21,800 nt of DNA from a virus. The translations under genes and the position numbers were made by a program. The DNA is taken from the IMG/VR virus record IMGVR_UViG_3300021254_000251, positions 1-21,800 of that record, one strand, 5' to 3'. This document shows positions 2,829 to 3,611 of the stretch, in pieces; the stretch's first letter is position 1; each line of letters opens with the position of its first letter. The notes beneath the pieces are model-generated. The model saw only the letters and a list, made by a program, of their open reading frames with translations, was not told the DNA's origin and ran no database searches.

Positions 2829-3611
2829 TTATGTTACCTCTTTTTTAATAATAAATTGGCTATTTTCTAATAAATCCTCTAAATATAAATTGTTATAGTG
2901 CGTATATGGTATTCTAATTAAAATAATATTGTTATCAAAACAATATTTATTTTTTTCTTTATCATGCTATTGACGTTTTTCAAAAGATTCTTTTGTATCA
3001 AAGCTAAATACAGGCTTAAAATGCTGTTCTCCATCATATTCAATAATAATATTTTTATCTGGTAAATAAAAATCAAATCTAGGAGTTCCATTGGAGTCAC
3101 TAAATTTGAAGTCTTTAAATCTTTTTTGAGAAATAAAATTAATGTTATTCGTATTTAATATTTCTCTAATTTTTTGTTCTCCACGAGATTCTTTTACACA
3201 ACCGCAGCTTGTAGTGCTCCCTTGAGTAAGATTATTAGTATATATTTCATATATTTTTCCACAATCGCATTGAACTAAATATTTTGAATTACCGTTTATT
3301 GTGCCTATAAATTTAAGTACAGTTAAATGTCCAAATCTTTGACCTGATAAATCTTTTAATGTTTTACGTCGATTTTCTTTAGTTATACAACCACAAGAAG
3401 GAGTATCTCCTCTTCTTAAATTTTCTGTAGTGGCATAACAAATATTTCCACAATTACATTGACATTTCCATGTATTTTTATGAATATTGTTATAATACAC
3501 TTGATGTGCTTCATCTGCATATTCTAATACTAATAATCGTGAAAATCTTTGTCCTTTTAAGTCAATCCCTCTAAAGTTTTTTTTGGTTTTTGGTTTTATT
3601 GTTTTTGCCAT
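2829..3611 (-). CDS. DNA endonuclease: two tandem Cys-rich zinc-ribbon repeats plus a DUF559/Vsr-like PD-(D/E)xK nuclease domain. Contains an in-frame TAG at 2967..2969 that must be read as sense
   Basis: The ORF track stops at the TAG (2967). Reading on in frame gives 45 more codons (HDKEKNKYCFDNNIILIRIPYTHYNNLYLEDLLE...) that complete the domain begun at FDFYLPDKNIIIEYDGEQHF (DUF559-type E.DG..H...D..K...G..vlRi pattern). The frame ends at TAA 2829..2831, 2 nt from the RNA ligase ATG. Tandem repeats: GQRF..L.VL...W.C.C.CGN...NL..G.T.SCGC occurs twice. Confidence 0.6.

Follow-up and report, generated by a model that had tools for sequence, protein, structure and literature searches.

This study concerns a putative homing endonuclease gene and the RNA ligase gene next to it in a 21,800-nucleotide (nt) stretch of viral DNA (IMG/VR record IMGVR_UViG_3300021254_000251, positions 1 to 21,800), which we call the window. 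All strands and positions refer to the whole window, in which the nuclease gene lies on the minus strand. The complete gene has 260 codons (2829..3611): it starts with the ATG at 3611, carries an in-frame TAG as codon 215 (2967..2969) and ends with a TAA at 2829-2831. Beyond the TAG the frame is open for 45 codons (2832..2966; HDKEKNKYCFDNNIILIRIPYTHYNNLYLEDLLENSQFIIKKEVT) until this TAA is reached; two bases (2828 and 2827) then separate the nuclease from the ATG (2826..2824) of the RNA ligase gene. With standard decoding, the nuclease open reading frame (ORF) would have only 214 amino acids (2967..3611) and 138 nt would be left before the ligase. The initial annotation, made from the sequence alone, had described this arrangement; when the sequence was read again, the coordinates of the ORF, the TAG and the TAA, the 45 codons, the 2-nt spacing and the 138-nt gap were all found to be correct. 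That annotation had also placed the TAG just after the start of the nuclease domain. It is located instead about two thirds of the way through the domain (residue 215; domain ~142-255), in the middle of a long helix.

Two public entries exist for the nuclease gene. One of them (P0121, from ENA) is the exact 260-amino-acid read-through product with the TAG called as Gln; the other (P0122, from NCBI, JGI/IMG and Logan) is the truncated call of 214 amino acids. A megablast search of the whole window against GenBank phages gave no match. In DNA with 31% GC the chance probability of 45 open codons after the TAG is ~0.07. Because an open run of this length is only mildly unlikely, the case for read-through rests on homology and context rather than only on the open frame.

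A search of 5.8 billion proteins returned 1960 homologues of the nuclease, the closest of which (P0001) is 89% identical. Alignments were made with 19 sequences (the window protein and 18 nearest and more distant homologues) and with 62 sequences. In both alignments the homologues with the C-terminal domain have a sense residue at the TAG column and keep the pattern HDxxKN...LIRIPY...DLL beyond it, and none of the full-length homologues stops at the position of the TAG. Six of the 20 columns that are invariant in the 62 sequences lie beyond the TAG, namely D217 (2961-2963), K220 (2952-2954) and I232-R233-I234-P235, the latter within L231-Y236 (2904-2921). The window copy retains all 20 invariant residues. 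The catalytic helix is completed by the 45 codons after the TAG, which encode its second half and also the last core beta-strand and C-terminal helix. The 214-amino-acid fragment is almost certainly inactive as a nuclease, since it is without half of the catalytic helix (D217, K220), the LIRIPY strand and the C-terminal helix.

The truncated and the extended protein were also compared by profile scores. For this comparison the PHROG families were used in place of Pfam DUF559, which gave 15.4 bits for the truncated and 15.2 bits for the extended form, both below the cut-off of 20.6 bits, and hence did not discriminate between them. With the extension the score rose from 126.5 to 165.2 bits for phrog_559, from 72.6 to 104.8 bits for phrog_9084 ('homing endonuclease') and from 45.8 to 77.3 bits for phrog_7140 ('intron encoded nuclease'), a gain of 31-39 bits. 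The tail of 45 amino acids alone matches the same three families (E 2e-5, 1.3e-4 and 1.1e-3), and these matches fall on the profile positions directly after those reached by the truncated protein. The claim that the catalytic domain is completed only by read-through of the TAG holds, and the extension gives significant matches to nuclease families. The ratio of nonsynonymous to synonymous substitution rates (dN/dS) against the 89%-identical orthologue, which is encoded by contig L001 (loci are numbered with L and proteins with P), is 0.21 before and 0.13 after the TAG, a pairwise estimate that mixes changes from before and after the TAG arose. Among the 12 substitutions after the TAG, fewer are nonsynonymous than expected under neutrality (P 0.007).

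The nuclease domain occupies residues 142-255 (2847..3188, minus strand) and is of the Vsr / EDxHD type of PD-(D/E)xK nucleases, as judged from a predicted structure. The AlphaFold model is that of the orthologue P0001 (89% identical; pLDDT 88) and not of the window protein; residue i of the window protein corresponds to residue i+71 of P0001. The modelled domain contains a helix (214-225), three strands (231-235, 249-254 and 259-264), a second helix (278-297), a further strand (301-306) and a final helix (315-318). P0001 residue 286, the counterpart of the window TAG, is at mid-length of helix 278-297; the invariant Asp follows two residues later, and then comes the core strand 301-306. A Foldseek search with this model returned Vsr with a probability of 1.00, and in the model the C-terminal domain adopts a Vsr-type variant of the PD-(D/E)xK fold. 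Conserved in the domain are E145 (3177-3179), D180 (3072-3074), E191, D193 (3033-3035), H197 (3021-3023) and D217; E145 is kept in at least 90% of the sequences, while D180, D193, H197 and D217 are invariant in the alignment of 62. The order and the secondary-structure positions of E145, D180, D193, H197 and D217 are right for the EDxHD motif, which in the study of I-Bth0305I (PMC3239194) comprises the counterparts of Vsr E25, D51, H64, H69 and D97. By order and spacing the five residues of the window nuclease are the putative counterparts of this set.

The N-terminal part of the protein consists of two tandem Cys-rich modules (residues 16-76 and 86-139; 3195..3566, minus strand) with the pattern G-Q-R-F-x-x-L ... 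W-x-C-x-C-x-C-G ... S-C-G-C. In the P0001 model these modules are beta-rich, with a pLDDT of about 90. They resemble Zn-ribbons and presumably bind DNA; no Pfam match to NUMOD or helix-turn-helix (HTH) motifs was found in this part of the protein. The closest relatives have a third N-terminal module, which is deleted in frame in the window copy (junction MAKT/IKPKTK). The number of modules also varies among intact members of the family.

Pfam assigns the family to none of its models. All matches, which are to Vsr-like families, are below threshold; DUF2726 appears in 15 of 21 members (best E 4e-5), and PvuRts1I-like_N, DUF559 and RAP appear as well. The domain alone scores 16.8 bits with DUF559 (PF04480), and only 5 of the 21 family members have any match to it. 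Membership in DUF559 was rejected, given scores of 15.2-16.8 bits against a gathering threshold of 20.6 bits. Of the 'DUF559/Vsr-like' domain proposed initially, the Vsr-like part is borne out by the fold model of the orthologue, and DUF559 turned out to be the wrong yardstick. The best PHROG matches, phrog_559 and phrog_374, are labelled 'HNH endonuclease'. This label is probably wrong for the family, because the domain folds as a Vsr-type PD-(D/E)xK nuclease and has no HNH motif.

Next we considered how TAG is used in the rest of the genome. Part of a 140,477-bp ENA contig (ena:ERZ1756110 scaffold_1573790; L163, L245) is syntenic with the whole window and, over the 2 kb that were compared, identical to it; the genome-wide counts cover ~49 kb of this 140-kb genome (window, L163, L245). 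A block on the plus strand (7630-19955) contains 64 in-frame TAGs; it has ORFs of 700-1000 codons only when TAG is read as sense and is fragmented under the standard code. All 36 gene ends in the 49 kb are TAA or TGA and none is TAG. TAG is a sense codon in this genome. With none of 36 genes ending in TAG and 64 TAGs in frame in the late genes, TAG is neither the default terminator nor a null mutation here. The read-through of the nuclease had been put forward as independent evidence for TAG as sense, and the homologues, the profile scores and the fold support this view. The lysis genes of this ~140-kb phage are of the Gram-positive type, and the host of the recoded phage is probably a member of the Firmicutes.

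The relatives of the nuclease gene carry TAGs as well. P0001 shows Gln at codons 27 and 216, where its contig (L001) has TAG; Q residues in database proteins can therefore hide TAGs. The orthologues next to the ligase contain two in-frame TAGs in L001, 4-5 in L007, 10 in L084 and 9 in L086. A second paralogue in L086 has 10, and a more distant family member in L012 has 6. The TAG positions differ across all these orthologues, which are otherwise intact genes, and copies of the nuclease in standard-code contigs have zero TAGs. In the wider family TAG is present in 49 of 132 distinct members. Two side observations concern copy number. In L086 the ligase is immediately followed by a second, diverged nuclease paralogue (8085-9077), and L004 and L010 represent two nuclease copies on one 130-kb contig.

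In the close, DNA-verified subfamily, in which every codon was checked, Gln is the majority residue in 10 of 18 TAG columns, several of them unanimous, against a Gln background of 4%. Contexts of the unanimous type are LVG(TAG)RF, SHGE(TAG)KIRE, NER(TAG)AWWKC and NFIS(TAG)K. These alignments indicate that TAG is most probably decoded as glutamine. The broad alignment of 132 sequences was dropped as a source for the amino acid: K, E and Q are all enriched in it, its conserved columns are uninformative, and members that are distant and modules that repeat make it too noisy. Homologues differ at the column of the window TAG (C, L, K, Y, F, Q, E), and the closest orthologue, L001, has TGC there. 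For this reason the single TAG codon of the window says nothing by itself on the inserted amino acid. A tRNA with the anticodon CTA, called 'Pyl' by ARAGORN, is encoded in the related locus L084 (3311-3401), 2.4 kb upstream of the nuclease copy there. It has 91 nt, a long variable arm, an A1.C72 mismatch and G73. This shape is odd for a suppressor that inserts Gln, though TAG aligns with Gln in the nuclease gene of L084.

The comparison of related loci indicates how the nuclease gene came to lie ahead of the ligase. The RNA ligase gene (1600..2826, minus strand; 408 amino acids, Pfam RNA_ligase 1.2e-20) has no TAG and is both target and host gene of a 906-nt mobile cassette (2794..3699, minus strand). 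In the direction of transcription the cassette is composed of an 88-nt leader (3612-3699), the nuclease ORF, the two spacer nucleotides and replacement codons 1-11 of the ligase. It is inserted in ligase codon 12, with a junction that is ambiguous by 2 nt (TA). The replacement codons (2794..2826; ATGTTAGATAAAAATGGCACTAGACAATTAGCA) encode MLDKNGTRQLA and are in frame with the resident codon 12 (TAT, 2791-2793). On the other side of the cassette is the orphaned old 5' end of the ligase (3697..3732, minus strand), a stub of 11 codons that runs from the ATG at 3732 to GCT, encodes MLNANNERELA and is closed by a TAA (3697-3699) formed at the insertion junction.

An empty site was found in L165, which is 97.5-99.4% identical to the window on both sides and is without the 906 nt. 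The ligase start in L165 is ATGCTTAATGCAAATAACGAAAGAGAACTTGCT TAT GTT (MLNANNERELAYV); the stub of the window (3732..3700) consists of the same 33 nt up to the junction and has kept the original Shine-Dalgarno sequence. Translation of the stub probably continues, which would make it a mini-ORF immediately before the cassette. It overlaps the stop of an upstream ORF of 56 amino acids, as the original ligase start did. The ligase itself stays intact, since the cassette brings replacement codons 1-11 together with a Shine-Dalgarno sequence. The latter is probably the GAGG contained in the final codons of the nuclease (AAAAAAGAGGTAACA).

Among 80 loci that were recovered with the ligase, 73 have no match to the nuclease family in the stretch examined, one (L221) has it directly upstream and six have distant paralogues downstream only. 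In every occupied relative (window, L001, L003, L004, L007, L084, L086 and L135) the nuclease lies directly upstream of the ligase. L001, L003, L084 and L086 have the stub as well, and L004 and L007 have its distal end. Most occupied loci show both the stub and the conserved left end of the cassette (AATTTTTGGACA or a close variant). At least eight occupied loci have a common junction, and six of those other than the window retain its architecture. The 33-nt ligase start carried by the cassette is identical or nearly so in L001, L135, L186, L216 and L222, in which the rest of the ligase is 44-67% identical. In the comparison of the window with L001 the identity falls from 89% in the nuclease to 67% in the ligase and 40-41% in the two genes that come next; an element that is better conserved than its flanks is indicative of recent horizontal spread. 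Two loci represent later stages: in L135 the copy has decayed to an 86-amino-acid C-terminal remnant, and L216 bears a loss footprint, in which the nuclease is gone and the replacement codons remain along with ~20 nt from the end of its ORF. The empty, occupied, decayed and lost sites make up the full life cycle of a free-standing homing endonuclease gene. The comparison of these alleles identifies the gene as a selfish mobile cassette, which the initial annotation had overlooked, and not as a resident enzyme of an early module.

The alleles differ around the insertion site. Empty alleles read ...GAAAGAGAACTTGCT/TATGTT and are of the ERELAY or RELCY type (71 loci); occupied alleles read ...ACTAGACAATTAGCA/TATGTT, with RQLAY. 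The longer contexts are ...AACGAAAGAGAACTTGCTTATGTTGTAATTATT... in the empty, L165-type allele and ...GGCACTAGACAATTAGCATATGTTGTA... in the occupied allele. The changed start (RQLAY versus RELAY type) presumably protects the occupied allele from cleavage, and the stretch that differs between the alleles would be the recognition site of the nuclease. The protein is a presumed free-standing homing endonuclease that would cleave DNA at this target. A sigma-70-like site (TTGATA, 16 nt, TAGAAT) is located inside the part of the nuclease ORF after the TAG (2911-2938, minus strand), ~85 nt upstream of the ligase ATG. By analogy with the promoters embedded in the seg/mob genes of T4 it could be a cassette-borne promoter for the ligase; sigma-70-like sites are fewer than in shuffled sequences. 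No sigma-70-type promoter was found upstream of the nuclease.

Taken together, it is very probable that the TAG is read as Gln, that the product is a complete Vsr-type homing endonuclease and that its gene is part of a mobile cassette in the RNA ligase gene. Several observations weigh against this reading. The ~49 kb examined of the 140-kb genome yielded neither a tRNA(CTA) nor any other suppression machinery. A tRNA cluster (Arg-TCT, Arg-ACG, Trp-CCA) begins at 19721-19946 in L245, in the same genome to the right of the window, and a suppressor tRNA, if present, may lie just beyond the edge of L245. The nearest relatives carry Cys, Leu or Lys at the column of the single TAG, which by itself does not indicate the inserted amino acid. 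The mixed age of the substitutions in the pairwise dN/dS, already mentioned, counts on the same side. Neither I-Bth0305I (3R3P) nor Vsr was matched in profile searches of PDB sequences, whether the query was the entire protein or just its nuclease domain. The relation to these enzymes is visible at the level of the fold only, and the residue-by-residue mapping of the catalytic site is therefore putative. Finally, the first of three N-terminal modules is lost in the window copy; since homing endonuclease genes commonly decay, some loss of function is possible.

The initial annotation had placed the nuclease in an early module and suggested that it is held back until suppression is active. We compared TAG with CAA plus CAG codons in the genes of the same strand and of the late block on the plus strand. 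The counts are 1 versus 11 in this nuclease, 4 versus 14 in a GIY-YIG endonuclease gene that splits gyrA, and 9 versus 15 in the endolysin. All 17 other same-strand genes together have 1 versus 88; these include the ligase, a kinase-like gene, phosphoesterases, gyrB, the gyrA exons and a vault-like protein, as well as a 99-amino-acid ORF that accounts for the one TAG (1 versus 0). The late block has 47 versus 174. The counts of the two endonuclease genes (5 versus 25) depart from those of the 17 genes (Fisher P 0.004), with no such departure from the late block (P 0.64). The GIY-YIG gene is at 19734-20489 of L163, in the same genome and ~6 kb past the left end of the window. In L001 the nuclease has 2 TAGs, a LAGLIDADG gene 1, the lysins 2 each and the 21 other same-strand genes 0. 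The LAGLIDADG gene (19288-20241) occupies the equivalent place in gyrA, and the gyrA exons and gyrB are without TAG in both genomes.

This distribution agrees with published work on recoded phages. According to Borges et al. (bioRxiv 10.1101/2021.08.26.457843), recoded stops are concentrated in genes for structure and lysis, and TGA is significantly enriched in an endonuclease encoded by a group I intron within an early gene of the TGA-recoded Agate phages; the authors proposed that in-frame stops block the production of the endonuclease until late. The suggestion that the window nuclease is held back fits the same-strand TAG pattern and this proposal, and the timing itself is presumed from them. 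The label 'early' is unproven because the same strand also carries a holin and the endolysin. The proposed sequence of events would be as follows. Suppression is thought to become effective only after a phage-encoded suppressor tRNA accumulates; codon 215 would be read through whenever amber suppression operates and would give a complete active site. Active nuclease would then be made only in the suppression phase, and the TAG-free ligase downstream could be translated at any time.

As an additional candidate element, an RNA hairpin may form by pairing of 3668..3652 with 3620..3605 (3605..3668, minus strand), which would cover the nuclease AUG, the spacer ahead of it and part of the Shine-Dalgarno sequence. 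Support for this hairpin is weak (z -1.7), and 11 of 200 shuffled sequences fold as well. Inspection by eye suggests that L001 could form this pairing too, with a G.U pair placed elsewhere.

One explanation for the in-frame TAG is that the gene is a decaying pseudogene, in which a true nonsense mutation arose so recently that the downstream frame is still open. Homing endonuclease genes do cycle through invasion, decay and loss, and the decayed copy (L135) and the footprint (L216) are found at this same site. The window copy is without its first N-terminal module, its TAG column is not a conserved Gln, and an open run of 45 codons could occur by chance (~0.07). However, TAG ends none of the 36 genes in this genome, and the late genes of the window contain it 64 times in frame; orthologues can carry 2-10 TAGs and be intact in all other respects; intact family members also vary in module number; and several public sources have contigs with this same allele. 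None of the 20 invariant residues is missing, and dN/dS after the TAG is 0.13, with the mixture of substitutions noted above. With TAG not terminating here and with the conservation beyond it, the pseudogene was rejected as the main explanation and we consider it highly improbable. It has also been considered that two products are made by design, with a 214-amino-acid form that serves an early function, such as binding of a target or operator without cutting, and the 260-amino-acid nuclease made later. The truncated form is unavoidable if the mRNA precedes suppression, it keeps both Cys-rich modules, and I-TevI of T4 doubles as a DNA-binding autorepressor (PMC2988022). The positions of the TAGs argue otherwise. 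They differ among the orthologues (codons 27 and 216 in L001, many places in L084 and L086), so that no particular truncated product is conserved and most would end in the first module; the TAG of the window is moreover unique to the window allele among the relatives examined. A designed pair of products is thus unlikely, to nearly the same degree as the pseudogene.

The two remaining explanations agree that TAG is sense and differ in why it is there. In the one, the TAGs are tolerated and not selected: a nuclease that is useless early would not, once suppression exists, lose changes from CAG, AAG or GAG to TAG, and late-only expression would be a by-product and no means of restraining a harmful nuclease. 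The share of TAG in the two endonuclease genes (5 of 30) is not above that in the late genes (47 of 221; P 0.64), the TAG columns of the wider family are enriched for K, E and Q, each of which is one mutation away from TAG, and two recoded relatives (L004 and L005) have TAG-free copies. The TAG of the window is at a variable helix position that is probably exposed at the surface. On the other hand, about half of the nuclease Gln codons are TAG in several relatives (10 of 18, 9 of 18, 10 of 19 and 5 of 10), while the adjacent genes have none, and this density is at or above the level of late genes. T4 confines homing endonucleases to late times by unrelated means (PMC2988022), which suggests that late expression is favoured, and stops are significantly enriched in the intron endonuclease of TGA-recoded phages (Borges et al.). 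We give tolerance a nearly even chance. The other explanation is that the cassette spares the ligase by its recoded codons 1-11 and ribosome-binding site and that amber codons accumulate in it by selection, gating the nuclease to the late phase; this we put forward tentatively, as something possible about which we have more doubt than belief. The one TAG in the window copy gives weak evidence for selection. If selective gating were true, the genetic code would offer mobile nucleases a general way to live in the early operons of recoded phages; the GIY-YIG gene that splits gyrA in this genome and the LAGLIDADG gene of L001 likewise carry TAGs.

The nuclease can be compared with several known systems. 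The I-Bth0305I / EDxHD family (PDB 3R3P) also combines an N-terminal DNA-binding region with a C-terminal Vsr-fold nuclease, has residues E...D...(E)xD...H...D to which those of the window nuclease putatively correspond in order, and is phage-borne and mobile. Unlike the window nuclease, to which it has no sequence similarity by profile search, it contains NUMOD/HTH motifs in place of Cys-rich Zn-ribbon-like repeats, and I-Bth0305I is encoded by an intron and not free-standing in a cassette. The window nuclease has in addition the invariant K220 and the LIRIP strand, and the distance from the His to the last Asp is 20 residues, compared with 9 in the EDxHD family. Vsr of E. coli (PDB 1CW0, 1VSR) is more remote: it is ~10% identical, acts as a nickase in mismatch repair, has a zinc site of its own as well as Trp residues that intercalate, and has neither a mobile context nor N-terminal repeat modules. 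The nearest homologues from cultured phages are genes of Staphylococcus Twortvirinae (for example Romulus_003, JX846613), with 31-34% identity over 80-85% of the protein. They occur in several copies per genome and are annotated as 'Group I intron protein' or 'homing endonuclease'; Romulus_003 lies in a stretch marked 'similar to large subunit terminase' in its record. In contrast to the window gene, these distant homologues are associated with introns in standard-code phages and are often mislabelled HNH.

With respect to expression, the endonuclease of the Agate phages is alike in being a homing endonuclease within early-type genes of a recoded phage that carries recoded stops. It differs in that its stop is TGA (Trp), it is encoded by an intron and its enrichment was tested statistically across the clade, whereas the window gene has a single TAG (Gln), is free-standing and belongs to another, Vsr-type family. 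The T4 endonucleases I-TevI, I-TevII, I-TevIII and SegB and MobE of Aeh1 are translated only late (PMC2988022). As is proposed here, their genes are embedded in early or middle transcription units and remain untranslated until late, and the endonuclease ORF contains signals that serve the host gene downstream of it. In T4, however, the block is an RNA hairpin over the ribosome-binding site, which is relieved by late promoters, whereas the block proposed here is the genetic code itself. The weak hairpin predicted over the start codon of the window nuclease is a further likeness to T4.

Stop-codon recoding, its bias towards late genes and recoded stops in a homing endonuclease within early genes are already published, and the predicted read-through protein (P0121) is already in a public collection. 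What is new is the example in a TAG-recoded phage that probably infects Firmicutes, an endonuclease family that joins Cys-rich repeats to a Vsr-type domain and is captured by no Pfam model and called 'HNH' in PHROGs, and a cassette architecture that replaces the first 11 codons of the target gene. This replacement is an unusual way of making an insertion into a coding sequence harmless. The idea that a code switch holds back homing endonucleases of early regions is hereby extended to TAG-recoded phages and to another nuclease family. The locus provides a clean case of a recoded stop in a gene that stands among TAG-free genes, for which empty, occupied, decayed and lost sites are all available, and the target site is predicted so precisely that homing and cleavage are directly testable. 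For annotation, the truncated public entry of 214 amino acids misses some of the active site and is incorrect for this phage.

Two observations concern the neighbouring genes. The RNA ligase is followed by genes for an AAA_33 kinase-like protein and a metallophosphoesterase, which together form a TAG-free row (3-2826, minus strand, in the window and 10786-13639 in L163); by analogy with Pnk/Rnl of T4 this row looks like a module for RNA (tRNA) repair. Further upstream, at 4557-7046 on the minus strand, the window encodes a TAG-free protein of 829 amino acids that has no PHROG match and matches Pfam MVP_shoulder (E 1.9e-23) and Vault_3 (2.7e-8), i.e., domains like those of the major vault protein in a phage.

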